A program made the translations under genes and the position numbers. The notes below the pieces were generated by a model. The model saw only the letters and a list, made by a program, of their open reading frames with translations. It was not told the DNA's origin and did not search any database. Of a stretch of DNA of 64,000 nt, positions 1,010-43,530 are shown one piece after another (the first letter of the stretch is position 1; each line of letters begins with the position of its first letter). Source of the DNA: Amoebidium appalachense (lineage: Eukaryota; Protista; Ichthyosporea); assembly GCA_963693365.1 (NCBI GenBank), contig CAVNZM010000009.1, forward strand, positions 9,735,743 to 9,799,742, read 5' to 3'.

Positions 1010-1011
1010 AC

Positions 1012-8600: not shown

Positions 8601-10486
8601 GCTTGTACGCCACCCTGTCGGGGGAGGGTATCGAAGACTGGGTTCAGCTGCTGAGCAGGTGCGCCAGGGGCTCCCGGGCCCAGAAAGTTGTCTCCATCAT
8701 CCGTGCAGGGCTCACCGCGTGCAAGTCAGAGGTGAACCGGGGCATGCACACCGCCATGCGCAGCTACATTGTGCCAGGGACAAACCAAGATGTATGTGAT
8801 GACTTTTTTCCCACACCGTCTGCATGTCGTGAATCTGCTTGGGTTTTGCTCATGGCTGAATCATCTTGCAATTCATGATCGATATGTTGGCAGCTTGATG
8901 ATTGTGTCTTCAAATGACAAAGGGTAACAATAAAGACAGGTTTTTTCATACGGGTTTGCATACAAACTGCAACAGGTGCCGTGAGACTCACAACTAATCC
9001 CCCCCCCCCCCCCCCCCTCCCCCCCCCCCACAAACACACAATACACATACACACACCTGCACACACAGGCACATTTACATGTAACACGCACACACACGCA
9101 CACACACACTCTCACACACGATGCACATGTTACACAGCACTATAGTGGTTTTAATTTGCACTTCCACAAACACATTAGGGTTTTATTTGTGGAAATTATT
9201 GACATAAATATTTTTCTGGGTAAACACGTAGGATGGGTGTCCGATATCAACAGGCTTCGTTTCATGTTTTAGCAGTTCGCGTTCGGCTGCCCGCATACGG
9301 GCACCTATTAGCCGATCAAAGCATCAGATTCCACAGATCACTAGACCGAGTTTGATTGGCTCAGGATAAGATTTCACATAACACTAGATCGGTTTTGATT
9401 GGCTCAGTTCGGCAGCCTTAGGTATATAAGCACGACAGTTTTTAGCAGATCAGCAAGCAACAACACATCCTCTGTGTTTAGCACCTACAGCTTTACAGCT
9501 ATATTTTCTTTTTCTTTTCTTCTCCCTATCTTTCCCTACGCCGGTCAGCATGCCGCCGAAAAAGCGCCAGGCCTCAGCCGCCGCCCCTACCGCGGCACCT
9601 AAGCGCCTAACCCGCAGCGACCTCCGCCACAGGCTGACCAACGCATCACTCGCCTCAGCACCCGATACCCGTGGACCCAGATCCACAACTATGACGTATA
9701 CGCCCGAACCGTTGCCCACCAACAGGGTCGGGCTCCGATCGAGTGTCCCAACCTGCTCGCCCAACTCCACCAGGATCTCCTCCTGCCACCCACTCTGCTC
9801 ATCCCGGACGCATGTCAGCGTTGCGGCTTCCCCGACCACCCCAGCGCGGCCTGCCCCATGTACCCCAAGCCCGGCTGTGGTCTTGATGGTTTCGAGCCCC
9901 CCCACAAGCCCGGCGGGGGACAAACCCCCAACCGACCCGGCCCGCAACCCGGCCCGGCACCACCGGCCCGACCCGTGGATCTACCCGCAACACACTGCAG
10001 GAATTTCCACAACGGTCGGTCCTGCGCTAAGCAGCCCTGCCCCTTCTCCCACGTGTGCCCGCTCTGCTCTGGCACACACCCCCGCAAAGACTGCAAGCAC
10101 AATGCCTAGTCTACGCGCACACCCACACCCACAGATAGAACATAGGGGCTAGGAGCTAGGTTACACGGGTCCAAGGACACGGAGCTCGGGAAAAACGGGG
10201 CACTAGGGCTGAGTAACATTTTTCGCAGGCCAACTACGGCGCCCGCGCGCGCCAAGAATAAATGTCCCTACACAAAGACGTTATTCTGGCCACTGCACAT
10301 AAATTTACTCCCCCCCATCCCACGAGCCTCCCCCCCTTACACTCACCTAGCGCTCCCTCCCTTCTTCTAACTCTGTGTACGCCCACACCCGCGCGTGCTC
10401 GGGCATCCCCTGCACAGGGCCCCGCTGCCCTCCCTGCAAACCCTCCCTCGGGCCCAGCTGCCCTACTCTAACCCCCCGGGGCCCTG

Positions 10487-10523
<37 letters not shown>

Positions 10524-10951
10524 ATGCCGGGATCTCCCCGAGGGTGCCCCACCCTTGCTAACCACCCCTTCCCCCGAGGCTCAGCCCCGGTGGCCCGCCC
10601 GCTGCCCCAGCACCACGTTGACACCTCCCGCCTCTGGGAGCTGCTGGCCCCCCTACCCAGCCCAATCATTCGCCGCGCAGCTCCTCCGTAACCAACTTCC
10701 CCGGACCCGACGACTCCGACCTTACCTGCAACCGGAGCCCTGCCCCTTCCCCTTCTGGGTCCACAAGTTCCTATCCCTTCCCCTGGGCTCACCCCCCCCC
10801 CCCCCCCCCCCCAGATCTCCCCTTCCGGAGCAACGCTGGCCGATTGGCCCCCCACTTTGCTCCGGCCGAGCTGCTTCGTGCCACCACTACCCTGCAGGAA
10901 TGCCAGGCCCTGAGTCTCAACCTCGACTCTCGGGCCTTTTACTCCAGGGTA

Positions 10952-10990
<39 letters not shown>

Positions 10991-13968
10991 GTTCATCGAT
11001 TTTTGTGTGGCATCTCGGCTGCAATCCTCCGCCGGGTCCTCCCTCCCGGCCTCCCCCCACACCGTGCAGCTTTTTTCTCGCCTGGTGTGCCCAACGAGGG
11101 GTACAGGCCTCTTCCTTGGCCGGCTACAATTCAGCCATCACCAGACTCCACCTCGACATGGGCCTCCCTGCTCCCTACCCCCACGACAAGTCTCTGGCCT
11201 GGTTCTTCCGAGGGGTGGGCAGATGGCAGCTTTCTCACAACATCCGACCCCGATCATCCACCAGGGAGCCCCTCCTGCCCTCCCACCTTAGCCTACTCCA
11301 TGACCAGTGCCCCACCAAGGCCTCCTCGGCTAATCTACGGCTATGGACGGCCCTCATCGTCGGTTTCTGTGGTCTCCTCCGTTCGGGGGAATTTACCTCC
11401 AAAACCCTGACTTCCTTTGACCCGTCCCGTCACGTTAAACGGAAAGACGTGACCTTCACCTACACCCCCACCGGTACTTTGTCCCATGCCACCCTCCACC
11501 TGCCAACCTCTAAGACGGATGTACAGGCCCGAGGTGTCAACGTCACTCTAGCTGCCCTGCCCCTCACCCACTTCTCCCCAGCCCATCTCCTCCGGCAGTT
11601 CCTGGATACAACGTCCGGTCAACCCAACGACCCCCTCTTCAGTCTCGGTGGCATCCCCTACACCAAGAGTGCTTTCTCTGCCGACAAGCATACTGCTCTC
11701 GTGCCGTGGTTTACAACCATTGCAGGTTCACTTTCGTCCAAGGGGATGTCCCCCTAGAGGCAACACACGTCCCGGAGTAGTTTTCATAGAGGTTTTATTT
11801 GTGGAAATTATTGACATAAATATTTTTCTGGGTAAACACGTAGGATGGGTGTCCGATATCAACAGGCTTCGTTTCATGTTTTAGCAGTTCGCGTTCGGCT
11901 GCCCGCATACGGGCACCTATTAGCCGATCAAAGCATCAGATTCCACAGATCACTAGACCGAGTTTGATTGGCTCAGGATAAGATTTCACATAACACTAGA
12001 TCGGTTTTGATTGGCTCAGTTCGGCAGCCTTAGGTATATAAGCACGACAGTTTTTAGCAGATCAGCAAGCAACAACACATCCTCTGTGTTTAGCACCTAC
12101 AGCTTTACAGCTATATTTTCTTTTTCACCCACCCACCTACACCCTACACTCAACCCCCATTGATCCCCACATACGTGCTGTTTTTTCACGGGGCGAAGAC
12201 TTCCCCCGTTTTTTTTGGGCACAAGGACCTCACGGATCAATAAATTGATGACTGGGGGCTTGCCGTGGTTTACAACCATTGCAGGTTCACTTTCGTCCAA
12301 GGGGATGTCCCCCTAGAGGCAACACACGTCCCGGAGTAGTTTTCATAGATGCATACATACACAGCTGTTCCAGGTTGCACCGGTCAACTCCGCAGACCTT
12401 GCCGAGTTGGCCGAGCAGATCAAGTTTCGCCGCACGACTTGGGAGGGCTACATGGCGGTGCACCAGACCAACGGCCTGCCCTGCGGCCGCAAGTACAGCG
12501 TGGACCCCGTAACCGGCAACCCGTGGGGCAACTCGTCGCTCTACCGCATCATGTGCCTGGCCCCCATCAACGGGTCATTGATCAAGGAGCGCCTCGGCAA
12601 GTTCAAGACCCTCAACGTGGGTCCCCCCCCCCCCCCCCCCCCCCCCCCTTGAGAAACTCATTCTCTTCGGAGGTGTAGGAGCACCCCTAGTGATGGGATC
12701 TGGCTAACTGTTCCTTGCTTTGCATATTCCTTGCCGAGAGATTTGTTTCTGTTTCTTTTTCCTTTTTTTTTCCCGTTAATTTTTTTTTTTTTTTCTTACC
12801 TTTTTTTTTTTTTGTGCAAGTGGGTCCCCCCCCCCCCCCCCCCCCCCCCCCTCCTCCCCCAAAGAATGTACGCATCAATATGCAGACATGATTTAGCCAC
12901 ACCCAAACCTGACCCTCTGAAGGTGGGCGGCCCAGCAACTTCTTTACCACATATTGTTATACAGTGTACCTTCAACCTTATGTTGGTGTAAATTCTCATC
13001 AACCATCCCCCCTCCCCCCCCCCCCCCCCCTCCTCCTTTCTCAACGTCTCGCACACCTCCCCTATTACACACACACCACTCCCCATTCACACACGCACAC
13101 ACACACACACACACACATACACTTGCACACACACACTCACACACAGAAATTCCAGAAGGAGTTGCCCGACTTGTTCAGCTTCATGCTGCACACGTTCGAG
13201 TGTGGGTTGCGTGACCCTGTCGCGCACAAGTCGGGCACCCACATCAAGTGGTCCGCTGTGGTGTACCACGCCGACCAGCCAGACTACGAGGGCGGGGCCC
13301 ACCCGGCAGAGATAGCAAGGGTAAGTTTTTTGTGCAACTATCCGAACGTGTTCGGATGATCTGATCAGCACTATGATGTACTCGAGTGTGTGTTTTTGTG
13401 TTCATTAGATGCTAATAACATGTCTTCATGGGTCATTGTTTCTAAACGATGCTCTTCAGGTGGTCTACTAGATGTTCCCACATACTTGTAATATGGGATT
13501 TATATGGACATAAGGACAGTCTTGTGTATATCAGTCTTTGAGTTTCCGAGGTATGCGTGTTAGAGCTGTGACCTTGACTATGTCAAATACATATAATAAT
13601 GTTCTCATAACTACACTTCATATTCCCCCACTAACCCCCCCCCCCCCCCCCCCTAGAACGTCAAAAACTGGGACAAGATCTCCAAGGCCCGTGCCGATGC
13701 GGTGAAAGATCTGGACCTGGCGGATGACTACAAGGCCAACAAGAACGCCAAGCAGCAGGACGCTGCAAAGGAGAGGGGCCCCAAGTCTGTCAAGCGGACT
13801 AGGGAAGACGTCGACGACAGCAGCGAGGCCCAGGGCGGTGGCCTAAGCAAGAAGGGCAAGAGTACGGTTGGGTCGCCGGTAGCCCCGGCCCCGGCTCCCA
13901 ACCAGCAAGGTGATGAAGAGGGTGGTGAGGAGGAAAATGGGGGGGTTGAGGGAGGGGGGATGGCGTGA
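5694..13968 (+). CDS. Transposon accessory gene A, unknown function (basic N-terminus, acidic linker, conserved helical C-terminal domain)
   Basis: Exons about 5694-5961, 6878-7091, 7756-7973, 8462-8791, 12365-12616, 13147-13320 and 13657-13968. Motifs YIVPGTNQD, PCGRKYSVDPVTGNPWG and YEGGAHP match copy B. One probable frameshift in the G-run near 7920. An intron contains Ngaro copy 1. Confidence 0.75.
6063..6583 (+). CDS. KDM4-like JmjC domain (C-terminal catalytic half only), nested in intron 1 of accessory gene A
   Basis: Frame reads FAGHVEDAG...YKVWFVHPP...CENPLQHK...VQGPGDLIQTTPLALHYGFQCGPNVSFAVN...ACSC, giving the HxE...H iron triad and the C-x5-H...CxC zinc site. A phase-1 acceptor catgtag| at 6062 fits the donor at 5962. 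The N-terminal JmjN/YGAD-type region present in copy B is missing. Confidence 0.85.
8070..8282. repeat. Two tandem units of about 110 bp in an intron
   Basis: gaatcctcgtaat...caatagatccttatatga(t/c)atc(a/g)tctcgagtatttt...gacattcca occurs twice. Confidence 0.85.
9179..12349 (+). mobile_element. Ngaro/DIRS-type YR retrotransposon copy 1, internally deleted (non-autonomous)
   Basis: A1 starts at 9179, B1 11702-11790, A2 11791-about 12126, B2 about 12261-12349. There are deletions in gag (about 9643), RT (about 10688) and the YR 3' end (about 11685), and a poly-A expansion at about 10953-10988. Confidence 0.95.
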
Positions 13969-18824: not shown

Positions 18825-19718
18825 TTATAAGCATCGGGTTTTTTCACTAACTACCCACAGAGTAGCTTCTAGCACGATAAATTCACCACAAATTATAAGG
18901 GGAGATGGTGAATGTGCCCTTGGAGTACGAGGGCCACACGAAAAAAACACAACGTTGTAGCTCGAATAGAACCCCCCTTGTAGCATAGTATATGTACATG
19001 TGTTACTTACACATTATTGGTTTTTTCAATAACTACCCACAGAACAGCTTCTAGCACGAGACATTTACCACACAGTTTATGGGGGGGATGGTGAATGTGC
19101 CCCTGGAGTACGAGGGTCACACGAAAAAAACACAACGTTGTAGCTCGAATAGAACCCCCCTTGTGGCATAATATATGTACATGTGTTACTTACACATTAT
19201 TGGTTATTTCAATAACTACCCACAGAACAGCCTCTCGCACGAGATATTTACCACAAAGTTTATGGGGGGGATAGTGAATGTGCCCCTGGAGTACGAGAGT
19301 CACACGAAAAAAACACAACGTTGTAGCTCGAATAGAACCCCCCTTGTAGCATAATATATGTATATGTGTTACCTAGACATTATTGGTTTTTTCAATAACT
19401 ACCCACAGAACAGCTTCTAGCACGAGACATTTACCACACAGTTTATGGGGGGGATGTTGAATGTGCCCCTGGAGTACGAGGGTCACACAAAAAAAACACA
19501 ACGTTGTAGCTCGAATAGAACCCCCCTTGTAGCTGATAATATATGTACATGTGTTACTTACACATTATTGGTTTTTTCGATAACTACCCACAGAACAGCT
19601 TCTAGCACGAGACATTTACCACACAGTTTATGGGGGGGATGGTGAATGTGCCCTTGGAGTACGAGGGTCACACGAAAAAAACACAACGTTGTAGCTCGTA
19701 TAGAACCCCCCTTGTAGC
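18825..19718. repeat. Second array of the 181-bp satellite, about 5 copies, ending at Ngaro copy 2
   Basis: Same unit and orientation as 2705-3715. The last unit ends ...cccccttgtagc directly at the Ngaro start ggttttattt. Confidence 0.95.
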
Positions 19719-20107
19719 GGTTTTATTTGTGGAAATTATTGACATAAATATTTTTCTGGGTAAACACGTAGGATGGGTGTTCGATACCAACATAACCATG
19801 TAGGCTTCATTTCGTGTTTTAGCAGTTAGCGGTTGGCTGCCCGCACACGGGCACCTATTAGCCAGTCAAAACATCAGATACCACAGATCACTAGACCGAG
19901 TTATGATTGGCTCGGATCAGATTTCACATATCACTAGATCGATTTTTGATTGGTTCAGATCGGTAGGCTTAGGTATATAAGCACGACAGTTTTTAGCAGA
20001 TCAGCAAGCTACAAACACATCTTCTGTGTTTAGCATCCACAGCCTTACAGCTATATATTCCTTTTCATTCCTTTTCATTCTCCCTATCTTTCCCTACGCC
20101 GGTCAGC

Positions 20108-21277
20108 ATGCCGCCGAAAAAGCGCCCGGCCTCAGCCGCCGCCCCTGCCGCGGCACCTAAGCGCCTGACCCGCAGCGACCTCCGCCACAGGCTGACCAAC
20201 GCTCCCGCGGACACTGACGCGCCTCCAGCGGCCCATACCACCACGGACCCGGACCCGCCGGCTACTCTCCCCTCCACCCCTGAAGTCCCCCCTCAGGCCC
20301 CGCCGTCCCCGCAGATGACTTCTCAAGACGCCGTCCTGGCCGCCCTCACCGCCATCAGCACCCAGATGGCTGGCGTCCTGGCTGCTCTCACCAACCGCGA
20401 CCCTCCCGCGCCCCCCGCCGCGCCCTCCACACCCGGGGAGGTTTCCCCGGGGCTGCATCTCGGCCCTGACCTTGACCTGCCTGCCCTGCCCGCGCCCCCC
20501 ATCACAGGTGAGAACACTGGCGACATTCAGCCGGGCACACTCCCGCTTCCCCCCGCGGATGTGCTGGCAGATTTGCGCGCCAATCGTTTCGTCGACCTGT
20601 ATAAGTTCACCCCCGCCGCCCTCCTGGCCCCATCCAAGAAAGGTCAGCATCTGCGCATGGCCGACGACGGCAGCATCGAGACTTTTCGCCAAGACAAACC
20701 CGTTCCCCTGCGTTCACTCGTCATTTGGATCCAAGCTTGGACCCATTACATGGCCGCCAAGCGCCACCTCGGCCTTCCCACGGACAAAGACGTACTTTGG
20801 ACTCAGCACATCACTCGCCTCAGCACCCGATACCCGTGGGCCCAGATCCACAACTATGACGTATACGCCCGCACCGTGGCCCACCAGCAGGGTCGGGCTC
20901 CGATCGAGTGCCCCAACCTGCTCGCCCAACTCCACCAGGATCTCCTCCTGCCACCCACCCTGCTCATCCAGGACGCATGTCAGCGCTGTGGCTTCCCCGA
21001 CCACCCCAGCGCGGCCTGCCCCATGTACCCCAAGCCCGGCTGTGGTCTTGACGGCTTTAAGCCGCCCCACAAACCCGGCGGGGGTCACACCCCTAACCGC
21101 CCTGGCCCGCAACCCGGCCCGGCCAAACCGGCCCGACCCGTAGATCTACCCGCGACGCACTGCAGGAATTTCCACATTAACGGTCGGTCCTGCGCTAAGC
21201 AGCCCTGCCCCTTCTCCCACGTGTGCCCGCTCTGCTCTGGCACACACCCCCGCAAAGACTGCAAGCACAATGCCTAG
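20108..21277 (+). CDS. Gag-like protein of Ngaro element (389 aa)
   Basis: ATG start. Contains the CQRCGFPDHPSAAC knuckle and the C-terminal CRNFH...C...CPFSHVCPLCSGTHPRKDC zinc fingers typical of YR-element gag. Confidence 0.9.
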   Translation: MPPKKRPASAAAPAAAPKRLTRSDLRHRLTNAPADTDAPPAAHTTTDPDPPATLPSTPEVPPQAPPSPQMTSQDAVLAALTAISTQMAGVLAALTNRDPPAPPAAPSTPGEVSPGLHLGPDLDLPALPAPPITGENTGDIQPGTLPLPPADVLADLRANRFVDLYKFTPAALLAPSKKGQHLRMADDGSIETFRQDKPVPLRSLVIWIQAWTHYMAAKRHLGLPTDKDVLWTQHITRLSTRYPWAQIHNYDVYARTVAHQQGRAPIECPNLLAQLHQDLLLPPTLLIQDACQRCGFPDHPSAACPMYPKPGCGLDGFKPPHKPGGGHTPNRPGPQPGPAKPARPVDLPATHCRNFHINGRSCAKQPCPFSHVCPLCSGTHPRKDCKHNA

Positions 21278-21557
21278 TCTACGCGCACACCCACACACAC
21301 AGCTAGAACATAGGGGTTCGGAGCTAGGACACACGAGTACAGGGAAACGGAGCTCGGGAGAACGGGCCAATAGGGCTGAGTACAAAATTTCGCAGGCCAA
21401 CTACGGCGCCCGCGCGCGTCAAGAATAAATGTCCCTATACAAAGACGTTTATTCTGGCCACTGCACATAATTTTACTCCCCCCCCCCCCCCATCCCACGA
21501 GCCTCCCCCCCTTACACTCACCTAGCACTCCCTCCCCCCCCCCCTTCTTCTACCGCT

Positions 21558-21672
21558 GTGTCCGCCCACACCCCCGCGTGCTCGGGCACATTCCCCTGCA
21601 CAGGGCCCCGCTGCCCTCCCTGCCAACCCTCACTTGGGCCAAGCTGCCCTACTCTAACCCCCCGGGGCCCTG

Positions 21673-21718
<46 letters not shown>

Positions 21719-23402
21719 CTGCCGGGATCTCCCCAAGGGTACACCACCCTTGCTAACCACCCCCTTCCCCCGAGGCTCAGACCCGGAGGCCCGCCCGCTG
21801 CCCCAGCACCACATTGACACCTCCCGCCTCCGGGAACTGCTGGCCTCCTACCCGGACCAACCATTCGCCGCACAACTCCTCCACGATGTCGAATTCGGCG
21901 TCGACATCGGCTATCGCGGCCCCTCCACCTCTCGGGTGGGCCCCAACCTACCCACCACCCCGGAGGCAGCTGCCGCTATCACGGTGGATATTGCCAAAGA
22001 AGTCGCCCTCGGCCACCTGCGCGGCCCCCTCTCCCCGGCCCAATTCTTTGACGAATTTCCCGTCCACCGTTCCTCCCCCATCGGCGCCGTTACCAAGAAA
22101 GGGAACCCCCCCAGGTACCGTCGAATCCACCACCTCTCCTGGCCCCGGGGTAGCAGTGTCAATGACAGCATCACCTACCCCGACGAACTTCAGTACATTC
22201 GCGCCCGGGATGTCACCCAACTCATTCTCGACGCAGGCCCCGGCTGCTACATGGCCGTGGCAGATGTGCAGGCTGCCTTCCGGCACATGCCCATCCGACC
22301 GGAAGACCACCACTTAATGGCATTCAAATGGCAAGGGCATTTTTACGTTGAAACCAGACTGCCCTTCGGCCTGAAATCTAGCCCAGCCATCTGGGAACGG
22401 ATCGCGGCCACCCTACAGTGGCTGGCACACCAGCACGGTATTACCCTCATCCGCCACTACGTAGACGACTGGATTATAGTCGCCCCCACACAACAGCAGT
22501 GCCAACGTCACCTATCCACCTTTCTGCAACTCTGCCGAGAGCTGCACATTGCCATCTCCGAAGACAAGATGCAGGGCCCGGCTACCCGTGTCGTCTTCAT
22601 CGGTATCGAATTCGACTCCATCGCCATGGAGGCACGAATCCCGGCTTCCAAGCTCTCGGACCTACTCGACCTCACTTCCCACCCAAAGCCCACCATCACC
22701 ATTCGGGACCTCCAGTCCCTCCTCGGCAAACTCACCTGGTGTGCCCAGCTGGTTCCCCCCGGGAGGGCCTTCTCCCAGCGCCTATGGGCCCTTCTCCGGA
22801 CCCACCCACACCTTGCCGGCCACCACCACATACGACTGACTGCTGCCGCCCGGGCCGACATAGCCGAATGGCACCAGTTCCTCACATCATGGAATGGGGT
22901 GCACCTCATCACACCCCCCACATACACCACCCTGGCCACTGATGCTGCCGGATCGGTGGGTCTAGGTGGCCACTGGCTCGACCAATGGTTCTTCATGCCC
23001 TGGTCCCCCTCCACCCAAGCCCTCTATGCTCATGAGGGTAAACTCGGTTCTTCCGTCATCGAACTCCTGGCCATCGCAGCCGCCGTGGCCCTCTGGGCCC
23101 CCTCCTGGTCCACCCTCCATGTCCGTATTTTATGCGACAACACGGGTGCTGTGTCTGACCTGCACTCCCGGTCTTCCCCCCACCCCGTGATGGCCAAACT
23201 TGTTCGGTTCATCACCCGCATGGAAATGCAATACCAATTTACGTTACAGGCATCCTACCTACCAGGACCCCTCAACCATCTGGCCGATGCCATTTCTCGT
23301 AACCAACTTCCCCGGGCCCGACGACTCCGACCTTCCCTGCAACCGGAGCCCTGCCCCTTCCCCTCCTGGGTCCACGAGTTCCTATCCCTTCCCTTGGGCT
23401 AA
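21558..23402 (+). CDS. Reverse transcriptase-RNase H of Ngaro element (no ATG at ORF start; predicted spliced entry at 21781)
   Basis: RT motifs RRIHHLS, DVQAAFRHMPI, LPFGLKSSP, YVDD and FIGIEFD. RNase H motifs TDAAG, ELLAI, CDN and NHLADAISR. Confidence 0.95.
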
Positions 23403-23432
23403 CACCCCCCCCCCCCCCCCCCCCCCCCCCAG

Positions 23433-24493
23433 ATCTCCCGTTCCGGAGCAACACTGGCAGATTGGCCCCCCACTTTGCTCCGGCCGAGCTGCTTCGAGCC
23501 ACCACTACCCTGCAGGAATGCCAGGCCCTGAGTCTCAACCTCGACTCTCGGGCCTTTTACTCCCGGGTGCAAAAAGTGTTCATCGATTTCTGTGTGGCAT
23601 CTCGGCTGCAATCCTCCTCCGGGTCCTCCCTCCCGGCCTCCCCACACACCGTGCAACTTTTTCTCGCCTGGTGTGCCCAACGAGGGGTACAGGCCTCTTC
23701 CTTAACCGGCTACAATTCGGCCATCACCAGGCTCCACCTCGACATGGGCCTCCCTGCTCCCTACCCCCACGACAAGTCTCTGGCCTGGTTCCTACGGGGG
23801 GTGGGCCGATGGCAGCTTTCTCACAACATCCGACCCCGCTCATCCACCAGGGAACCCCTCCTCCCCTCCCACCTCCACCTACTCCACGGCCAGTGCCCCA
23901 CCAAGGCCTCCTCGGCCAATCTCCGGCTATGGACGGCCCTCATCGTCGGTTTCTGTGGTCTCCTCCGTTCAGGGGAATTTACCTCCAAGACCCTGACTTC
24001 TTTCGACCCGTCCCGTCACGTTAAACGGAAGGACGTGACCTTCAGCTACACCCCCACCGGTACTTTGTCCCATGCCACCCTCCACCTGCCAACCTCTAAG
24101 ACGGATGTACAGGCCCGAGGTGTCAACGTCACCCTAGCTGCCCTGCCCCTCACCCACTTCTCCCCAGCCCATCTCCTCCGGCAGTTCCTGGATACAACGT
24201 CCGGTCAACCCGACGACCCCCTCTTCAGTCTCGGTGGCATCCCCTACACCAAGAGTGCTTTCTCTGCCGATTTCCGTGCCCTCCTCTCCCGGGCAGGCCT
24301 CTCACCCTCCCGGTTTGCCGGACACAGCCTCCGCATCGGGGGGGCCACAGCACTGGCTGAGGCCGGGGTCGACGACTCCCGGATCAAACAACTCGGCCGG
24401 TGGTCCTCCGACTGCTTCCTGATCTATACCCGACTTCGTCCGGCCTCCATTGCTGCCACCACCACACGTGTATTCGCCTCTATTCTTAAGTGA
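23433..24493 (+). CDS. Tyrosine recombinase of Ngaro element (no initiating ATG; predicted splice acceptor at 23432)
   Basis: Catalytic R-K-H-R-W-Y set: GLLRSGE, SKTD, GHSLRIGGAT and LGRWSSDCFLIY. Confidence 0.95.
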
Positions 24494-26413
24494 AACCTTT
24501 GGAGCAAGCATACTGCTCTCGTGCCGTGGTTTACAACCATTGCAGGTTCACTTTCGTCCAAGGGGATGTCCCCCTAGAGGCAACACACGTCCCGGAGTAG
24601 TTTTTTCATAGAGGTTTTATTTGTGGAAATTATTGACATAAATATTTTTCTGGGTAAACACGTAGGATGGGTGTTCGATACCAACATAACCATGTAGGCT
24701 TCATTTCGTGTTTTAGCAGTTAGCGGTTGGCTGCCCGCACACGGGCACCTATTAGCCAGTCAAAACATCAGATACCACAGATCACTAGACCGAGTTATGA
24801 TTGGCTCGGATCAGATTTCACATATCACTAGATCGATTTTTGATTGGCTCAGATCGGTAGGCTTAGGTATATAAGCACGACAGTTTTTAGCAGATCAGCA
24901 AGCTACAAACACATCTTCTGTGTTTAGCATCCACAGCCTTACAGCTATATATTCCTTTTCACCCACCCACCTACACCCACACACAACCCCCATTGATCCA
25001 CACATACGTGCTGTTTTTTCACGGGGCGAAGACTTCCCCCGTTTTTTGGGCACATGGACCTCACGGATCAATAAATTGATGACTGGGGGCTTGCCGTGGT
25101 TTACAACCATTGCAGGTTCACTTTCGTCCAAGGGGATGTCCCCCTAGAGGCAACACACGTCCCGGAATAGTTTTCATAGATTGTCATATTGTATGTGTCC
25201 TTACAGTGATTTTATGACGTTTGATGTATGATATCATTATCATACATGGAACATGCCATTATGCATGTAAGGATGGTTTTATGACGCACCAAAAAGCACA
25301 TTGTGCATGTGCATAGCACACCGTTACAACATATGCAAGTGCACATTACGACGTCAAATGTATTAATATGCGTCATCTACATTATATGTCGTAATGTCCT
25401 CCTATGCATCTGTTTACAACATCGTAATGTAATCTGTAGTAGGATGCAAATCACATCTTATGATAGGTCATGGGATAGCACAAACCCACCCATGGTATAT
25501 CCACTGGTTGTGTTTCGGATGTCGGAAAGGGCGCCGGAACGATTGGATTTCGATCTATTTTTATAATCAACTGGATGGGTTTGCAGTGCTCCATTGCATT
25601 GCTTTACAACATACAATAGACATACATGTGATAGTCATAGGTATTTGATCAAGAGAGTATTAATACCATACATTCGATACGTTTACAATGCTCCGTTATA
25701 TGGCTTTACATCAGACCATAGACATGCATAAGATCGTCCACAGGGTGGCGTTCTGATCCTCCCGTAGACGGTGTTACGACTGTCTGAATGCTCCCTGGCC
25801 GCCGTCATATACCCACCGACTAGACGTCGTATGTTGAATCTATTGCACGTCCATTGCACGTCGGTAAGATGGCTACATTGCACATGCATTGAACAAGCAC
25901 TCGCGGGGGTCTATGTACGTCCATTGGTGCATCGGGTGTCGGACCGAGCATATTACGACACATCCATTGGACATCGGGGAGCAATGATATGTATTTGGGG
26001 TTAGTTTTGGAGGGGTTGAGGGGTTTCCGATGTCGTCGGGTAGTTTAGGTTTTATTTGTGGAAATTATTGACATAAATATTTTTCTGGGTAAACACGTAG
26101 GATGGGTGTCCGATATCAACAGGCTTCGTTTCATGTTTTAGCAGTTCGCGTTCGGCTGCCCGCATACGGGCACCTATTAGCCGATCAAAACATCAGATTC
26201 CACAGATCACTAGACCGAGTTTGATTGGCTCAGGATAAGATTTCACATAACACTAGATCGGTTTTGATTGGCTCAGTTCGGCAGCCTTAGGTATATAAGC
26301 ACGACAGTTTTTAGCAGATCAGCAAGCAACAACACATTCTGTGTTTAGCACCTACAGCTTTACAGCTATATTTTCTTTTCATTCTCTCCCTATCTTTCCC
26401 TACGCCGGTCAGC

Positions 26414-27347
26414 ATGCCGCCGAAAAAGCGCCAGGCCTCAGCCGCCGCCCCTGCCGCGGCACCTAAGCGCCTGACCCGCAGAGACCTCCGCCGCGCCCTC
26501 CACACCCGGGGAGATTTCCCTGGGGCTGCATCTCGGCCCTGACCTGGATCTACCTGCCCTGCCCGTGCCCCCCATTACAGGTGAGAACACTGGCGACATT
26601 CAGCCGGGCACACTCCCGCTTCCCCCCGCGGATGTGCTGGCAGATTTGCGCGCCAATCGTTTCGTCGACCTGTATAAGTTCACCCCCGCCGCCCTCCTGG
26701 CCCCATCCAAGAAAGGTCAGCATCTGCGCATGGCCGAAGACGGCAGCATCGAGACTGTTCGCCAAGACAAACCTCTTCCCCTGCGTTCACTCGTCATTTG
26801 GATCCAAGCTTGGACCCATTACATGGCCGCCAAGCACCACCTCGGCCTCCCCACGGACAAAGAGGTACTTTGGACTCAGCACATCACTCGCCTCAGCACC
26901 CGATACCCGTGGGCCCAGATCCACAACTATGACGTATACGCCCGAACCGTTGCCCACCAGCAGGGTCGGGCTCCGATCGAGTGTCCCAACCTGCTCGCCC
27001 AACTCCACCAGGATCTCCTCCTGCCACCCACTCTGGTCATACCGGACGCCTGTCAGCGCTGCGGCTTCCCCGACCACCACAGCGCGGCCTGCCCCATGTA
27101 CCCCAAGCCCGGCTGTGGTCTTGATGGTTTCGAGCCGCCCCACAAGCCCGGCGGGGGCCAAACCCCCAACCGACCCGGCCCGCAACCCGGCCCGGCACCA
27201 CCGGCCCGACCCGTGGATCTACCCGCGACACACTGCAGGAATTTCCACAACGGTCGGTCCTGCGCTAAGCAGCCCTGCCCCTTCTCCCACGTGTGCCCGC
27301 TCTGCTCTGGCACACACCCCCGCAAAGACTGCAAGCACATTGCCTAG
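26414..27347 (+). pseudogene. Ngaro gag with frameshifting N-terminal deletion
   Basis: MPPKKRQ start, deletion at about 26490 through ccgcc microhomology; the remainder is near-identical to the C-terminal two thirds of 20108-21277. Confidence 0.85.
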
Positions 27348-27758
27348 TCTACGCGCACACCCACACCCACAGATAGAACATAGGGGCTAGGAGCTAGGTT
27401 ACACGGGTCCAAGGACACGGAGCTCGGGAAAAACGGGGCGCTAGGGCTGAGTAACAATTTTCGCAGGCCAACTACGGCGCCCGCGCGCGCCAAGAATAAA
27501 TGTCCCTACACAAAGACGTTATTCTGGCCACTGCACATAATTTTACTCCCCCCCCCCCATCCCACGAGCCTCCCCCCCTTACACTCACCTAGCACTCCCT
27601 CCCCCCCCCCTTCTTCTAACTCTGTGTACGCCCACACCCGCGCGTGCTCGGGCATCCCCTGCACAGGGCCCCGCTGCCCTCCCTGCAAACCCTCCCTCGG
27701 GCCCTGCTGCCCTACTCTAAACCCACCGGGGCCCTGCTGCCCCCCCCCCCCCCCCCCC

Positions 27759-28660
27759 TGTCATCTTCACTTGATTCTCAGCAAGACTTAAAAGACAAAA
27801 AATCTTAACATAATGACCTTGGTCATTTTCCGGGATTATGTTAGCGCTTTTAACAAGGGGGCCAATACATTTAGCATAATAGTTCATAAGGCAATCAGGA
27901 CCCTTATAAACCCCCATTATTTAGTACAGTATGTGAATGTGAAAGGGTTTAGTGTCATCTTCACTTGATTCTCAGCAAGACTTAGAAGTTGAGTTTTGTA
28001 TTTATTTATTAGTTGTTATAGTTTGTTTCCTTTTCCTTTCTTCATTTCTTTCTTTCTTTTCCGTTTCCGTGTACACGACATCTTAGATCTGTGTACGTAT
28101 CGACATACTTAGCTCGCGCACACGTATTGTCGTTTGCGTCAAAATCTATATATGTCATCCAATCATATCTCGTTTGTATTTTCCCAAATATAGTAACTTA
28201 CATTCCTTTCTCATTCCTTTCCCACGACGTAGCATTGTGCTATGTTCTTCAACTATTAGGAATAATTATATTTAGACGTGTTATGATAAGAACATGTATA
28301 AATATATGTTATGAATTAATAGTTACATAAGTGGTTTCATTTTATTAAATGTTTCCGTGCTTTTATTAGAAGTTTCTTTCATTAGAGGATTGAGTTTTAT
28401 ATTCTAAATGTCGACAGACATTTTATTCGATATATTTTACACTCATAGTTTTCGTCCTTTTGATTGGTTTATCGTTTCACATTCCCAAGTATAAAAGGGA
28501 CCTCATCTTGAAATAAATCATAAGCAGTCGTATTCATTTCCTATGGTTCCAGAAATCGTTCCTCCTCTCCGGTTGTGTTTTTCCCGTGTGTCTTTGTGTT
28601 GTGTATATCATAACACCCATCTGTGCTCTCTGCTTCTCCGTTTACCCACACAAAATAACA
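27759..28660. mobile_element. Solo LTR-like insertion (about 902 bp) in a poly-C tract
   Basis: AT-rich segment TGTCAT...ATAACA interrupts the Ngaro poly-C, with C-runs on both sides. Its first about 31 bp are repeated internally at about 27953. Confidence 0.75.
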
Positions 28661-29025
28661 CCCCCCCCCCCGATGCCGGGATCTCCCCGAGGGTGCCCCA
28701 CCCTTGCTAACCACCCCCTTCCCCCCGAGGCTCAGCCCCCGGAGGCCCGCCCGCTGCCCCGGAGGCCCGCCCGCTGCCCCAACACCACGGTGACACCTCC
28801 CGCCTCCGGGAGCTGCTGGCCCCCCTACCCAGCCCAATCATTCGCCGCGCAGCTCCTACGTAACCAACTTCTCCGGACCCAACGACTCCGACCTTACCTG
28901 CAACCGGAGCCCTGCCCCTTCCCTTCTGGGTCCACAAATTCTTATCCCTTCCCCTGGGCTCACCCCCCCCCCCCCCGGCCCCCCCCCCCCCCCCAGATCT
29001 CCCCTTCCGGAGCAACGCTGGCCGA

Positions 29026-30057
29026 TTGGCCCCCCACTTTGCTCCGGCCGAGCTGCTTCGTGCCACCACTACCCTGCAGGAATGCCAGGCCCTGAGTCTC
29101 AACCTCGACTCTCGGGCCTTTTACTCCCGGGTGCAAAAAATATTCATCGATTTTTGTGTGGCATCTCGGCTGCAATCCTCCGCCGGGTCCTCCCTCCCGG
29201 CCTCCCCCCACACCGTGCAGCTTTTTCTCGCCTGTTGTGCCCAACGAGGGGTACAGGCCTCTTCCTTGGCCGGCTACAATTCGGCCATCACCAGACTCCA
29301 CCTCGACATGGGCCTCCCTGCTCCCTACCCCCACGACAAGTCTCTGGCCTGGTTCCTCCGAGGGGTGGGCAGATGGCAGCTTTCTCACAACATCCGACCC
29401 CGATCATCCACCAGGGAGCCCCTCCTGCCCTCCCACCTCAGCCTACTCCATGGCCAGTGCCCTACCAAGGCCTCCTCGGCCAATCTACGGCTATGGACGG
29501 CCCTCATCGTCGGTTTCTATGGTCTCCTCCGTTCAGGGGGATTTACCTCCAAGACCCTGACTTCTTTCGACCCGTCCCGTCATGTTAAACGGAAAGACGT
29601 GACCTTCACCTACACCCCCACCGGTATTTTGTCCCATGCCACCCTCCACCTGCCAACCTCTAAGACGGATGTACAGGCCCGAGGTGTCAACGTCACTCTA
29701 GCTGCCCTGCCCCTCACCCACTTCTCCCCAGCCCATCTCCTCCGTCAGTTCCTGGATACAACGTCCGGTCAACCCGACGACCCCCTCTTCAGTCTCGGTG
29801 GCATCCCCTACACCAAGAGTGCTTTCTCTGCCGACTTCCGTGCCCTCCTCTCCCGGGCAGGCCTCTCACCCTCCCGGTTTGCCGGACACAGCCTCCGCAT
29901 CGGGGGGGCCACAGCACTGGCTGAGGCCGGGGTCGACGACTCCCGGATCAAACAACTCGGCAGGTGGTCCTCCGACTGTTTCCTGATCTATACCCGACTT
30001 CGTCCGGCCTCCATTGCTGCCACTACCACACGTGTATTCGCCTCTATTCTTAAGTGA
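29026..30057 (+). CDS. Tyrosine recombinase, uninterrupted ORF in RT-less Ngaro copy 3
   Basis: 343-aa ORF near-identical to 23462-24493. RHRY residues are retained; LRSGE is changed to LRSGG. Confidence 0.9.
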   Translation: MAPHFAPAELLRATTTLQECQALSLNLDSRAFYSRVQKIFIDFCVASRLQSSAGSSLPASPHTVQLFLACCAQRGVQASSLAGYNSAITRLHLDMGLPAPYPHDKSLAWFLRGVGRWQLSHNIRPRSSTREPLLPSHLSLLHGQCPTKASSANLRLWTALIVGFYGLLRSGGFTSKTLTSFDPSRHVKRKDVTFTYTPTGILSHATLHLPTSKTDVQARGVNVTLAALPLTHFSPAHLLRQFLDTTSGQPDDPLFSLGGIPYTKSAFSADFRALLSRAGLSPSRFAGHSLRIGGATALAEAGVDDSRIKQLGRWSSDCFLIYTRLRPASIAATTTRVFASILK

Positions 30058-30730
30058 AACCTTTGGAGCAAGCATACTGCTCTCGTGCCGTGGTTTACAA
30101 CCATTGCAGGTTCACTTTCGTCCAAGGGGATGTCCCCCTAGAGGCAACACACGTCCCGGAGTAGTTTTCATAGAGGTTTTATTTGTGGAAATTATTGACA
30201 TAAATATTTTTCTGGGTAAACACGTAGGATGGGTGTCCGATATCAACAGGCTTCGTTTCATGTTTTAGCAGTTCGCGTTCGGCTGCCCGCATACGGGCAC
30301 CTATTAGCCGATCAAAACATCAGATTCCACAGATCACTAGACCGAGTTTGATTGGCTCAGGATAAGATTTCACATAACACTAGATCGGTTTTGATTGGCT
30401 CAGTTCGGCAGCCTTAGGTATATAAGCACGACAGTTTTTAGCAGATCAGCAAGCAACAACACATCTTCTGTGTTTAGCACCTACAGCTTTACAGCTATAT
30501 TTTCTTTTCACCCACCCACCTACACCCTACACTCAACCCCCATTGATCCCCACATACGTGCTGTTTTTTCACGGGGCGAAGACTTCCCCCGTTTTTTGGG
30601 CACAAGGACCTCACGGATCAATAAATTGATGACTGGGGGCTTGCCGTGGTTTACAACCATTGCAGGTTCACTTTCGTCCAAGGGGATGTCCCCCTAGAGG
30701 CAACACACGTCCCGGAGTAGTTTTCATAGA

Positions 30731-32592: not shown

Positions 32593-34528
32593 GGGTCCCA
32601 CTGTGTACCGGGGCCCCTACCTTCACCATACTATCCTTAAGAGAGGAGATGTCTACTTCAGCAGCCCACACATGCTGATTTGACACGTTGATTGAATCTA
32701 CTTCAACATTTACTCCATCAAAAGGGTGTGTTTGGGTGAATTTATCATACTCGATGTATGCATTTCTACTGAGTGCATCACAATCTTTCATACTTTCACC
32801 TTTTGCATAAAAAGCCTTGTAATCAAACGAAGCTAACTCTGCAGCCCACCGTTGCATGCGTTCGTTGGTTAGCTTAGTAAGACCTTTCATGGCTAAAGTA
32901 GGTTTGTGATCAGAATACACCTCAAACGTCCTACCTACCAAAATATGTCTCCACTCTTTGGTAATGAAATGATAGATAGCATGACTTTCCCGTTCTGGAT
33001 TACTGTAACGTCGTTCCGTGGGGGAAAATACTCGACTGCCATATGCAACTACTCTATCTACTTTATCCTGTTCTTGATACAGTATGCCACCCTCACTGAC
33101 TAAACTGGCATCTACCCGAACTCGGAAAATACCTTGTGTGGGGGAGAAATCGGGGTGAACGAGAACATTATCACTTACCAATACTTCTTTTAACCGTTCA
33201 AAAGCTTCTAAAGCTTCAGAATCCCACAACACGGGGGCTTTTCTGTCACCACCTGTCTGCTTAGTAAGAGGGTGACCAATTTCGGCATACCTCCGTATAA
33301 AACGACGGAGGTAATTGGTTAGTCCTAGAAACTGCCTGAGCTGAGTGACCGTTTTAGGGTGAGGCCATTCTGTAATAGCCTTGATTTTACTAGGATCAGG
33401 AATAACACCATCCTTCGTGATCCTATGACCCACTGGCAGGAATTTAACATCTTGCACCCCCACTATGGTCTTTTTACCACTCACTTTCACACCAGCAGCT
33501 TCCAACACAGAGAACACTTTTTCACAATTAGAACTTACTAATTCTTCAAACGTTCTCCCTTTGACACATGCGTCATCCATATAACACGCCGTATATGATA
33601 AACACGGGCGCAAGATATCGCGCATAATACGACACAAATTTGCAGGTGCATGCACAAGACCTTGGGGCATCACAGTAAACTGCCACAACTCACCATCGAA
33701 TGCAAAAGCAGTCTTCTCCTTATCCTCTTCCCTAAGCCGACACTGAAAAAATGCATTTTTCAAATCGAGGACACAGAACCACTTATAGCCATGAAAACTA
33801 TCAAGTAATTCATCAATACGGGGAAGGGGAAAGAGATCCTTTTTAGTGACAGAGTTAAGGCCGCGTAGGTCTGTGCACATCCTGTAGGACCCGTTTGGTT
33901 TTTTAATTAAAAGTACCGGTGACCGCCACTGACTTTTACTAGGCTCTAAAATCTGCATTTCTCGAAATTCACTAATCATTTGCCTACCTGACTCTAATTT
34001 CGATTGCTCCATTCGATACTGAGGCATCACCACAGGACTGGCATCACCTGTATCAATTGCCACTGTATATCCCTTCACAAAACCGTGATCTTTTGGATGC
34101 CTAAGAAATACATTTTTGACTCGATTTAACATGGGAAGAATTAATGCACGTTGCTGATCCGTCCAACCTGGATCTACCATACCCCAGGGGAGACTCACTT
34201 CACCGGAATCACCCTCCCTGTTACAGTTACTACTTGCACCTTCACCTGCACACACTCCGTCTGCTTTACCAATATCATCACTAGAAGGGCCCTTTTCTGT
34301 GGATGAGGGATTGACACCTACTGCATCGGACTGAGGACCAGACACCGTGGTAACCGCAGACACTGAAACACCATCAACCGTAGGCGAGCGACTTCCTGTT
34401 GGTGTTGATGTCTCGGGCTGGCCACATGCTTCCGGATTACTAGGTTTATCTGAAGGTAGCTCGGGGGTGGGGATAACTATTTCTGCAACAACTGTATCGA
34501 AAGGCAGCTGCCCTTCGATATATCCCAA
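32593..34528 (-). CDS. Gypsy reverse transcriptase-RNase H
   Basis: YRMCTDLRGLN, FPLPRIDELL, LDLKNAFFQ, MPQGL, YMDD, RQFLGLTNY, VDAS, YSDHKP and DALSR. Confidence 0.95.
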
Positions 34529-36283
34529 TCTATGAAAACTACTCCGGGACGTGTGTTGCCTCTAGGGGGACATCCCCTTGGACGAAAGTGAACCTGCAAT
34601 GGTTGTAAACCACGGCAAGCCCCCAGTCATCAATTTATTGATCCGTGAGGTCCATGTGCCCAAAAAACGGGGGAAGTCTTCGCCCCGTGAAAAAACAGCA
34701 CGTATGTGTGGATCAATGGGGGTTGTGTGTGGGTGTAGGTGGGTGGGTGAAAAGGAATATATAGCTGTAAGGCTGTGGATGCTAAACACAGAAGATGTGT
34801 TTGTAGCTTGCTGATCTGCTAAAAACTGTCGTGCTTATATACCTAAGCCTACCGATCTGAGCCAATCAAAAATCGATCTAGTGATATGTGAAATCTGATC
34901 CGAGCCAATCATAACTCGGTCTAGTGATCTGTGGTATCTGATGTTTTGACTGGCTAATAGGTGCCCGTGTGCGGGCAGCCAACCGCTAACTGCTAAAACA
35001 TGAAACGAAGCCTGTTGATATCGGACACCCATCCTACGTGTTTACCCAGAAAAATATTTATGTCAATAATTTCCACAAATAAAACCTCTATGAAAACTAC
35101 TCCGGGACGTGTGTTGCCTCTAGGGGGACATCCCCTTGGACGAAAGTGAACCTGCAATGGTTGTAAACCACGGCACGAGAGCAGTATGCTTGCTCCAAAG
35201 GTTTCACTTAAGAATAGAGGCGAATACACGTGTGGTGGTGGCAGCAATGGAGGCCGGACGAAGTCGGGTAAAGATCAGGAAGCAGTCGGAGGACCACCGG
35301 CCGAGTTGTTTGATCCGGGAGTCGTCGACCCCGGCCTCAGCCAGTGCTGTGGCCCCCCCGATGCGGAGGCTGTGTCCGGCAAACCGGGAGGGTGAGAGGC
35401 CTGCCCGGGAGAGGAGGGCACGGAAATCGGCAGAGAAAGCACTCTTGGTGTAGGGGATGCCACCGAGACTGAAGAGGGGGTCGTCGGGTTGACCGGACGT
35501 TGTATCCAGGAACTGCCGGAGGAGATGGGCTGGGGAGAAGTGGGTGAGGGGCAGGGCAGCTAGGGTGACGTTGACACCTCGGGCCTGTACATCCGTCTTA
35601 GAGGTTGACAGGTGGAGGGTGGCATGGGACAAAGTACCGGTGGGGGTGTAGCTGAAGGTCACGTCCTTCCGTTTAACGTGACGGGACGGGTCGAAAGAAG
35701 TCAGGGTCTTGGAGGTAAATTCCCCTGAACGGAGGAGACCACAGAAACCAACGATGAGGGCCGTCCAGCCGGGAGGGAGGACCCGGAGGAGGATTGCAGC
35801 CGAGATGCCACACAGAAATCGATGAACACTTTTTGCACCCGGGAGTAAAAGGCCCGAGAGTCGAGGTTGAGACTCAGGGCCTGGCATTCCTGCAGGGTAG
35901 TGGTGGCTCGAAGCAGCTCGGCCGGAGCAAAGTGGGGGGCCAATCTGCCAGTGTTGCTCCGGAACGGGAGATCTGGGGGGGGGGGGGGGGGGGGTTAGCC
36001 CAAGGGAAGGGATAGGAACTCGTGGACCCAGGAGGGGAAGGGGCAGGGCTCCGGTTGCAGGGAAGGTCGGAGTCGTCGGGCCCGGGGAAGTTGGTTACGA
36101 GAAATGGCATCGGCCAGATGGTTGAGGGGTCCGGGTAGGTAGGATGCCTGTAACGTAAATTGGTATTGCATTTCCATGCGGGTGATGAACCGAATAAGTT
36201 TGGCCATCACGGGGTGGGGGGAAGACCGGGAGTGCAGGTCAGACACAGCACCCGTGTTGTCGCATAAAATACGGACATGGTGG

Positions 36284-39430: not shown

Positions 39431-40827
39431 GGGTGGACCAGGAGGGGGCCCAGAGGGCCACGGCGGCTGCGATGGCCAGGAGTTCGATGACGGAAGAACC
39501 GAGTTTACCCTCATGAGCATAGAGGGCTTGGGTGGAGGGGGACCAGGGCATGAAGAACCATTGGTCGAGCCAGTGGCCACCTAGACCCACCGATCCGGCA
39601 GCATCAGTGGCCAGGGTGGTGTATGTGGGGGGTGTGATGAGGTGCACCCCATTCCATGATGTGAGGAACTGGTGCCATTCGGCTATGTCGGCCCGGGCGG
39701 CAGCAGTCAGTCGTATGTGGTGGTGGCCGGCAAGGTGTGGGTGGGTCCGGAGAAGGGCCCATAGGCGCTGGGAGAAGGCCCTCCCGGGGGGGAACCAGCT
39801 GGGCACACCAGGTGAGTTTGCCGAGGAGGGACTGGAGGTCCCGAATGGTGATGGTGGGCTTTGGGTGGGAAGTGAGGTCGAGTAGGTCCGAGAGCTTGGA
39901 AGCCGGGATTCGTGCCTCCATGGCGATGGAGTCGAATTCGATACCGATGAAGACGACACGGGTAGCCGGGCCCTGCATCTTGTCTTCGGAGATGGCAATG
40001 TGCAGCTCTCGGCAGAGTTGCAGGAAGGTGGATAGGTGACGTTGGCACTGCTCTTGTGTGGGGGCGACTATAATCCAGTCGTCTACGTAGTGGCGGATGA
40101 GGGTAATACCGTGCTGGTGTGCCAGCCACTGTAGGGTGGCCGCGATCCGTTCCCAGATGGCTGGGCTAGATTTCAGGCCGAAGGGCAGTCTGGTTTCAAC
40201 GTAAAAATGCCCTTGCCATTTGAATGCCATTAAGTGGTGGTCTTCCGGTCGGATGGGCATGTGCCGGAAGGCAGCCTGCACATCTGCCACGGCCATGTAG
40301 CAGCCGGGGCCTGCGTCGAGAATGAGTTGGGTGACATCCCGGGCGCGAATGTACTGAAGTTCGTCGGGGTAGGTGATGCTGTCATTGACACTGCTACCCC
40401 GGGGCCAGGAGAGGTGGTGGATTCGACGGTACTTGGGGGGGTTCCCTTTCTTGGTAACGGCGCCGATGGGGGAGGAACGGTGGACGGGAAATTCGTCAAA
40501 GAATTGGGCCGGGGAGAGGGGGCCGCGCAGGTGGCCGAGGGCGACTTCTTTGGCAATATCCACCGTGATAGCGGCAGCTGCCTCCGGGGTGGTGGGTAGG
40601 TTGGGGCCCACCCGAGAGGTGGAGGGGCCGCGATAGCCGATGTCGACGCCGAATTCGACATCGTGGAGGAGTTGTGCGGCGAATGGTTGGTCCGGGTAGG
40701 AGGCCAGCAGTTCCCGGAGGCGGGAGGTGTCAATGTGGTGCTGGGGCAGCGGGCGGGCCTCCGGGTCTGAGCCTCGGGGAAGGGGGTGGTTAGCAAGGGT
40801 GGTGTACCCTTGGGGAGATCCCGGCAG

Positions 40828-40875
<48 letters not shown>

Positions 40876-42819: not shown

Positions 42820-43530
42820 TCGCGTGCCAGCAGGTATTACTAATTCTGAATCAAGATTTCGATTTTCTACTTCGATCATGATTGTTTTATCAGCCGCCAC
42901 TTTACTATATGAAGGACTCACAAATGGAAGTAACCTAGCTGCCGGAACAAAGACACCTATATCTGCCACGACAGCAAATTGGTCTAAGTTGACACGGACG
43001 AATGCACGACTGTGGGGAGGTACACAAATTTCGCTGACAGTGTGTGCAGTACTTTGATACCCCTCCGTACCCGTGTGCAAACGTACACTACCACCCTTCT
43101 TCAAATGCAACTTATTAGATTCTTCATCTAACAATTTAACATGTGCCTTTGAAAATGGACGGCCTAAAATCATACTCTGACCCATGTTTGCACAAACAGC
43201 AAACGTGACAAATAATGTGTGGGAACCAATGGTACATGGGAGAGTGACCCGGCCCACCACATTCAACGATGCATCAGGATTGGCAGTCTTCACACCACTC
43301 ACTAAGTTATTTGAAAACATTGTAACACGTGCACCCATCTTCATTAAATTACAAATAACTTTTTCATGCACACAATTAATGTTTGCACCACCATCTAAAA
43401 GAATTTGAACATCACCCAATACCACAGGAACATATAACCGTGCTTCTGGCTGAATTAAAGATGCAAACACTTCCTGTAACACAGAAATTTCCACTTCACT
43501 ACTTTCCACACTAGTCTCTATCACCGACAC
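42820..43530 (-). CDS. Gypsy aspartic protease and downstream beta-rich domain
   Basis: ILLDGGANINCV active-site motif and ILGRPF. It joins ...IPAGTR|LGYIEG at 34528 once Ngaro copy 4 is removed. Confidence 0.88.

Follow-up and report, generated by a model that had tools for sequence, protein, structure and literature searches.

Structure of the element

A retrotransposon of the Ngaro type lies on the plus strand of a 64,000-nucleotide (nt) stretch of the genome of the ichthyosporean Amoebidium appalachense (GenBank assembly GCA_963693365.1, contig CAVNZM010000009.1, positions 9,735,743 to 9,799,742 of the forward strand), referred to here as the window. Its gag gene is followed by open reading frames (ORFs) for a reverse transcriptase (RT) with RNase H and for a tyrosine recombinase (YR), which lack start codons and carry matching splice signals; this layout is a real feature of the locus. 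The element would probably make three proteins from one promoter, with RT and YR each spliced to the first 133 residues of Gag (probability roughly 0.72). Its features, all on the plus strand, are as follows.

19715-25180, plus: complete Ngaro-type retrotransposon, a unit of about 5.5 kb found by self-comparison of the window
19715..20067, plus: split direct repeat A1, 353 bp, 99.4% identical to A2 (24609-24961)
19974, plus: TATA-like box TATATAA, inside A1
20108..21277, plus: gag ORF, 389 amino acids (aa), the sole ORF with a usable ATG; C-terminal Cys/His knuckles
20108..20507, plus: predicted shared coding leader, Gag(1-133); basic N-terminus, rich in Pro/Ser/Thr/Ala, with a hydrophobic helix-like stretch at about residues 71-97 and a putative role considered below
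20505..20513, plus: predicted 5' splice donor CAG/GTGAGA, phase 1, cut at 20507/20508, 22 codons before the Gag core motif
21424..21429, plus: AATAAA after the gag stop, which may be the poly(A) signal of a gag-only mRNA and is found in 4 of the 4 copies that cover the site
21471-23402, plus: RT/RNase H ORF (PF00078), catalytic motifs intact
21753..21780, plus: predicted RT branch CTAAC, pyrimidine tract and acceptor CAG, phase 1; branch A 24 nt upstream
21781..23402, plus: RT/RNase H coding region past the acceptor, without initiating ATG (PF00078, motifs, homology)
23283..23306, plus: RNase H A-D-x-x-S-R-x-Q codons, the place of the family-wide YR acceptor; unusable here, with CCGAT and CAA instead of CTGAY and CAG
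23303-24493, plus: YR ORF (PF00589)
23399..23432, plus: predicted phase-1 YR acceptor CAG with a poly-C tract and a branch CTAAC that includes the RT stop; branch A 30 nt upstream
23433..24493, plus: YR coding region past the acceptor, without initiating ATG (PF00589); R, HxxR and Y motifs intact
24522..24612, plus: split direct repeat B1, about 90 bp; B repeats 96.7% identical
24609..24961, plus: split direct repeat A2 (self-comparison)
25070..25075, plus: AATAAA ahead of B2, the likely end signal of the full-length RNA
25092..25180, plus: split direct repeat B2 (self-comparison)

The element is a Ngaro by the structural definitions in the available text of PMC3783388, PMC4157794 and PMC13465315, its class being assigned from layout. 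The order gag, RT/RNase H, YR is kept on one strand, self-comparison gives the split direct repeats A1...B1-A2-B2, and a Pfam scan of the three ORFs found neither a protease nor a DDE integrase. A methyltransferase domain after RNase H is absent: there is no Pfam match, and only 33 residues separate the last RNase H motif from the stop. A PAT-like assignment was rejected because that domain is required, although split direct repeats are present, and a DIRS1-like one because self-comparison yields direct repeats only, without inverted terminal repeats and an internal complementary region. The element thus shares with Ngaro (order DIRS) the architecture A1-gag-RT/RH-YR-B1-A2-B2, the lack of a methyltransferase and a YR frame that overlaps the end of RT. 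It differs in that published Ngaro ORFs are overlapping or frameshifted, with no mention of splicing in the portions of those accounts available, whereas here a closed gap of 500 nt separates gag from RT.

In a tree built by a quick method and including only unnamed relatives, the window RT falls in a long-branch clade with proteins P0121 and P0122. The 40 gag homologues are distant, and their matches mostly begin at about residue 115-160; a search of 1.84 billion representatives gave distant gag matches only and none from a close relative.

Predicted splice signals in the window element

The preliminary description proposed that RT and YR have no initiating ATG and that a single donor in gag joins in frame to an acceptor ahead of each, all in phase 1. 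These observations hold. The first in-frame Met of the RT ORF is residue 261, just ahead of the first catalytic motif, and that of the YR ORF is residue 148; both lie within the conserved domains. The donor at 20507/20508 and the acceptors at 21780 and 23432 have the coordinates and phases given, and the joined frames Gag(1-133)-RT (673 aa) and Gag(1-133)-YR (486 aa) are both open, with junction peptides PPITDPEAR and PPITDLPFR.

The donor falls 400 nt past the gag ATG at 20108, after codon 133. It is the sole GTRAG within 19700-21300, and its score of 6.6 bits has P=0.043 against synonymous shuffles. On the acceptor side, a second phase-1 AG (GAG) lies 6 nt upstream of the RT acceptor. None of 1000 dinucleotide shuffles reproduced the pair of phase-1 branch-acceptor sites preceding the two domains, for search intervals picked after the sites had been seen; at least two such sites anywhere occurred in 13% of shuffles.

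Between the gag stop and the RT acceptor there are stops in all three frames, so neither frameshifting nor readthrough can bridge gag to RT; for this reason the Gag(1-133)-RT splice is the best reading for the window element. The gap holds a single ATG (21429), which is followed by a conserved stop and reads ACG in the other 3 copies. The AATAAA at 21424 had been overlooked earlier, and a poly(A) signal occurs in this gap in 3 of 9 families that have one.

Close relatives place the edges of both domains near the predicted acceptors. The RT of P0121 is 53% and the YR of P0001 54% identical to those of the window; each is on a 4326-nt Logan contig, probably the same one. YR similarity to P0001 starts at the codon right after acceptor 23432, and RT homology starts about 7-10 residues past acceptor 21780. 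Only one register accommodates both the RT end of P0121 and the YR-frame start of P0001, and it requires Y-T-R-A-C at the RT stop, where the window has its CTAAC. A scan of viral_contigs gave no relatives among 78 candidates.

Conservation across distant families

An RT alignment led to 285 confirmed stretches in metagenome contigs, of which the best 80 of 285 were used. They form 38 families on deep branches of a quick tree, with 30-38% identity. Of the 23 families with a YR start, 22 have YR in the -1 frame, overlapping the end of RT; 17 of these 22 lack any ATG up to and including that start.

Of the 38 families, 32 extend as far as the last RNase H motif and could be scored for the YR acceptor. 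All 32 carry CAG or TAG in YR phase 1, 20 or 26 nt after the Asp codon, where 16.1±2.6 are expected and 25 was the maximum in 2000 synonymous shuffles. In these families the acceptor falls inside the RNase H A-D-x-L-S-R-x-Q codons. The Gln codon is CAG in 24 of 26 (12.1 expected); in two families the first Gln is CAA, and a CAG follows two codons later. GCT encodes the Ala preceding Asp in 22 of 30 (9.9 expected), giving a CTGAY branch. The acceptor score is at least 4 bits in 29 of 32 families, against 6.5 expected. Dual coding does not explain this codon conservation, because the stretch ahead of the AG opens with a YR-frame stop in most families. A separate search from 60 to 9 nt before the YR start found sites of at least 3 bits in 2 of 22 families, no excess over the 8% control. 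The RT stop TAG was considered as the YR acceptor in one clade and dropped once a stronger site was found further upstream.

The conserved RNase H-motif acceptor is absent from the window element, and an acceptor of the same phase follows the RT stop 126 nt further on, rather than lying inside the motif as in relatives. Sequence comparison suggests that in this lineage the YR acceptor was relocated from that motif to a place right after the RT stop.

The donor was scored in 22 families, over 10-120 codons before the Gag core motif (3 families were skipped and 13 had no usable gag). A phase-1 donor of at least 4 bits lies upstream of the Gag core in 13 of the 22, compared with one in phase 0, none in phase 2 and one downstream; 1.9 phase-1 donors were expected, and 400 synonymous shuffles gave at most 6. 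In 4 of the 9 remaining families a phase-1 donor sits inside the core G-E-F motif. Protein constraint could account for these (GGT in 4 of 10, 3.0 expected), but gene model P0226 is joined there. The YR acceptor and the gag donor are thus conserved across distant families at synonymous sites and in phase. The phase conservation that the preliminary description looked to related families for is found at these two sites, and at the RT acceptor in one clade only.

That clade has the gap-type layout of the window element. A clean phase-1 acceptor lies just before the RT start in L019, L038, L039, L043 and L055, and a sixth family, L050, has one in 6 of 8 members; the gap families L037 and L057 have none. 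A frameshift may take the place of splicing where gag and RT overlap by +1. In an overlap-type clade (L011, L012, L053, L002, L016, L027), a pyrimidine-CAG recurs 11-17 nt ahead of the RT TP motif; its RT phase 2 mismatches a phase-1 donor.

Fusion proteins on record

Among 29 YR-containing proteins of at least 439 residues, five RefSeq models (P0221, P0226, P0235, P0236 and P0238) have a leader fused to YR at a point 38-41 residues ahead of the APST motif. The RefSeq accessions of the fusion models are XP_068743127.1, XP_078354436.1, XP_062604210.1, XP_061187281.1 and XP_069130780.1. The predicted acceptors lie 37-43 residues before that motif, matching the model junctions. The five models come from two corals, two oysters and one scallop, and the leaders of P0221, P0226 and P0235 match the gag N-termini of fetched loci (E values of 9e-9, 3e-12 and 9e-6). 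Like Gag(1-133), most fusion leaders have a basic start and one hydrophobic helix-like stretch. The oyster models bear the isoform labels X2 and X3, with a four-residue difference on the donor side; the labels presumably reflect transcript data. P0257, from a 1488-nt Logan contig whose RNA or DNA type is not visible, has an MPPSKRRK leader joined at the same junction as P0238. P0234 (ENA) has that junction as well, and was not counted because its source layout is unclear.

RNA of the element and splicing in the host

Nine sequencing runs are listed, all as contigs and none recorded as RNA; runs X1, X8, X9 and X7 were compared over 19900-24600. X1 contains RNA, as seen from a spliced contig of a neighbouring gene, and X7, which covers the same intron, behaves as DNA. 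The gene (52278-53917, minus strand) has a GT-AG intron at 53357-53812 and stands among otherwise uncovered Plavaka-type genes; at a second skipped stretch of the X1 contig, no GT-AG was resolved within 3 nt. The host is a eukaryote that splices GT-AG introns. Over the element, X1 contigs cover gag, the 3' part of RT, and YR. Elsewhere in this part of the window, a JmjC-domain gene (54592-55599) lies beside an apparently intron-rich Plavaka transposase gene (57274-61260), and a related set occurs at about 900-6600. Plavaka and JmjC genes in the neighbourhood are reminiscent of Amoebidium (PMC11244446).

Proposed expression and alternatives

One promoter in A1 would give a full-length RNA that ends after the AATAAA at 25070. 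Left unspliced, this RNA would supply Gag and also serve as genome, the template of reverse transcription, and the AATAAA at 21424 may end a gag-only mRNA. Joining the donor at 20507 to 21781 would give Gag(1-133)-RT/RNase H, and joining it to 23433 would give Gag(1-133)-YR. In an element without protease or polyprotein, the shared leader may act as a tag for nuclear import, particle loading or target choice. A predicted complex of three copies of leader residues 64-103 scored 0.18.

The two splices differ in strength. Joining of the Gag leader to YR is very likely, and across the families a Gag(N)-YR splice is strongly supported by acceptor conservation, phase-1 donors and gene models. The Gag(N)-RT splice is less secure. 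Of the three-isoform strategy put forward in the preliminary description, the YR splice stands by comparison and the RT splice as the best reading of the window element, shared by one clade; no leader-RT product was found.

Several observations weigh against this scheme. No splice joint was found over the element in any of the 4 runs compared; X1 has no cover of 21627-22254 or 23197-23510, the stretches that hold the two acceptors, and one X1 contig crosses the donor unspliced, as expected for gag or full-length RNA. The RefSeq fusions are gene models, not reads. Most of the 29 long YR proteins are joined otherwise, mainly as RT-YR models that bridge the frame; two are Gag core-YR fusions, and one is joined to a piece of copia. 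The 99 RT homologues include no recognised leader-RT fusion. The RT acceptor of the window is weak, with 1.6 bits against 7.1 for the YR acceptor, on splice matrices that, here and in the family scores, are generic ones. Among 30 families the top RT acceptor falls in phase 1 for 14, phase 2 for 11 and phase 0 for 5, without a family-wide signal, and overlap-type families show no phase-1 RT acceptor signal. The YR acceptor of the window is not the conserved site, so the family statistics bear on it by analogy. A column-wise control of codon bias favours the YR acceptor, placing the pre-junction columns of Ala, Gln, Arg and Ser at ranks 2, 3, 7 and 8 among 178, but unrelated columns reach z 4.3-4.7; since the families are related as well, the shuffle P values are too small. 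An ATG lies at or before the YR start in 5 of 22 families, and the called start of P0001 lies upstream of its branch motif.

The weak RT acceptor, its lack of a family-wide counterpart and the missing leader-RT fusion favour a separate route to RT. YR would then be spliced to the Gag leader, and RT would begin at a near-cognate codon (TTG 21750, CTG 21798 or ATT 21813, in frame ahead of RT homology), through reinitiation, internal entry or an internal promoter, or would use another leader. This is doubtful. A phase-1 CAG at the margin of RT homology has a GCTAAC 24 nt upstream, gap-type relatives carry clean phase-1 RT acceptors at the same place, and the near-cognate codons sit in pyrimidine-rich, poor start contexts.

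Expression without any splicing is improbable. RT and YR would arise by non-AUG or coupled stop-start initiation, with YR starting at a -1-frame NTG derived from an RNase H Trp (CTG 23366). The called Met of P0001 lies at that NTG position, no junction was seen in the run contigs, and in two of the five families with a YR-frame ATG it forms an AUGA overlap with the RT stop. In these two, L041 (1728-1731) and L078 (4598-4601), the upstream splice acceptor is also kept, and YR may be made in both ways. Synonymous conservation of the branch, the pyrimidine tract and CAG in 32 of 32 families, these two included, would be left unexplained, as would the phase-1 donors and the fusion models, and YR would bear a poly-Pro tract of variable length at its N-terminus. 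More improbable still is an RT-RNase H-YR polyprotein made by -1 ribosomal frameshifting within the 100 nt over which the two frames overlap. The -1 position of YR in the window and in 22 of 23 families suits it, and available text of PMC3783388 calls the YR ORF frameshifted or overlapping. However, a slippery XXXYYYZ heptamer is absent from the window overlap and occurs in 1 of 32 families, and RT itself would remain without a start. The downstream poly-C run also varies among copies by non-multiples of three, although homopolymer lengths may be assembly errors.

Other copies and surroundings

Self-comparison reveals further copies of the element within the window.

39431..42821, minus: second copy, 5' part, 98.5% identical and cut by a copia insertion; donor 42039, RT acceptor 40767
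34520..36283, minus: second copy, 3' part, with a deletion in YR; YR acceptor 35973
26047..30730, plus: RT-deleted derivative copy; donor 26580, RT acceptor 28735, YR branch GCTCAC
9179..12350, plus: RT-deleted derivative copy in which the donor region is also lost

The donor and acceptors reported earlier as kept in other copies are present at 26580, 28735 and 42039; two coordinates are corrected to 40767 and 35973, and a fourth RT acceptor at 10584 had been missed. The YR branch GCTAAC holds for the window element, not for the two RT-deleted copies, which read GCTCAC. Copies are 89-99% identical over long matches, so similar that retention of the sites among them says little. One-nt indels occur between the RT branch and the AG among copies, and likewise just upstream of the RT acceptor in run X7.

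The RT-deleted copies at 9179-12350 and 26047-30730 share the same deletion (matching 21882 to 23298) and keep both acceptors, forming a non-autonomous subfamily. An origin as processed spliced copies was rejected, as the breakpoints show short microhomology and no GT-AG. The 3' end of a further copy, with spacer and B repeat, lies at the window edge (63762-64000, minus strand). The copia element (36283-39431, minus strand) breaks the second Ngaro copy in two within its RNase H region. Pieces of a gypsy-type element with long terminal repeats occupy 30651-34561 and 42796-45361, and the second Ngaro copy with its copia insertion lies between their gag/protease and RT/integrase parts. Directly left of the window element is a 183-bp tandem array (18837-19718, 4.8 copies, 93%), and a second array of that unit lies at about 2056-3614.

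Relation to known systems and meaning

In retroviruses and errantiviruses, env is expressed by joining one 5' donor to a downstream acceptor, and in some cases a few Gag codons are fused to it. Splicing there serves env, not polymerase or integrase functions, and the present leader is a long one, with about 80-230 residues in relatives. In foamy viruses, Pol is translated from a subgenomic RNA produced by splicing at a suboptimal site, and not as Gag-Pol (PMC7828637, available text). An enzyme from a spliced RNA and a weak splice site would be common to both systems; foamy virus Pol is a separate protein independent of Gag, whereas the enzymes of the window element would bear 133 Gag residues, with two enzymes per donor. 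In the plant Ty1/copia element EVD, splicing and early termination of gag RNA set the ratio of structural to catalytic proteins (PMC5580714, available text). There the spliced RNA gives Gag and the unspliced RNA the polyprotein; the window element would reverse this, with Gag from unspliced and the enzymes from spliced RNA.

No publication describing spliced RT or YR mRNAs of Ngaro or DIRS elements was found; the founding Goodwin and Poulter papers, Poulter and Butler 2015 and Repbase notes fell outside the coverage and may mention them. Such splicing is not described in the available portions of PMC7192593, PMC8547959, PMC3783388, PMC3266345, PMC6681497, PMC9341512, PMC4157794, PMC3537659, PMC13465315 and bioRxiv 10.1101/2021.08.05.455354, and published accounts, as far as their accessible text goes, leave open how YR retrotransposons including Ngaro translate ORFs without start codons.

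On balance, and with some caution, splicing may be the ancestral, family-wide route of Ngaro elements to their integrase. YR would always be a Gag-leader fusion, and the last RNase H motif would hold the branch point and acceptor within its codons. Lineages with a gag-RT gap would place RT under the same donor and may move the YR acceptor in phase, and the leader would replace the logic of polyprotein and protease. In Cafeteria Ngaros, ORF1 tracks integration preference (PMC8547959, available text), which a leader role in target choice would fit.

The conserved donor and acceptor specify exact junctions to seek in existing RNA-seq of corals, molluscs and protists, and would account for a class of RefSeq proteins now annotated as uncharacterized. 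They would also define the real N-terminus of YR, which matters for biochemistry and for its use as an integration tool. Host splicing would become a control point for Ngaro elements.

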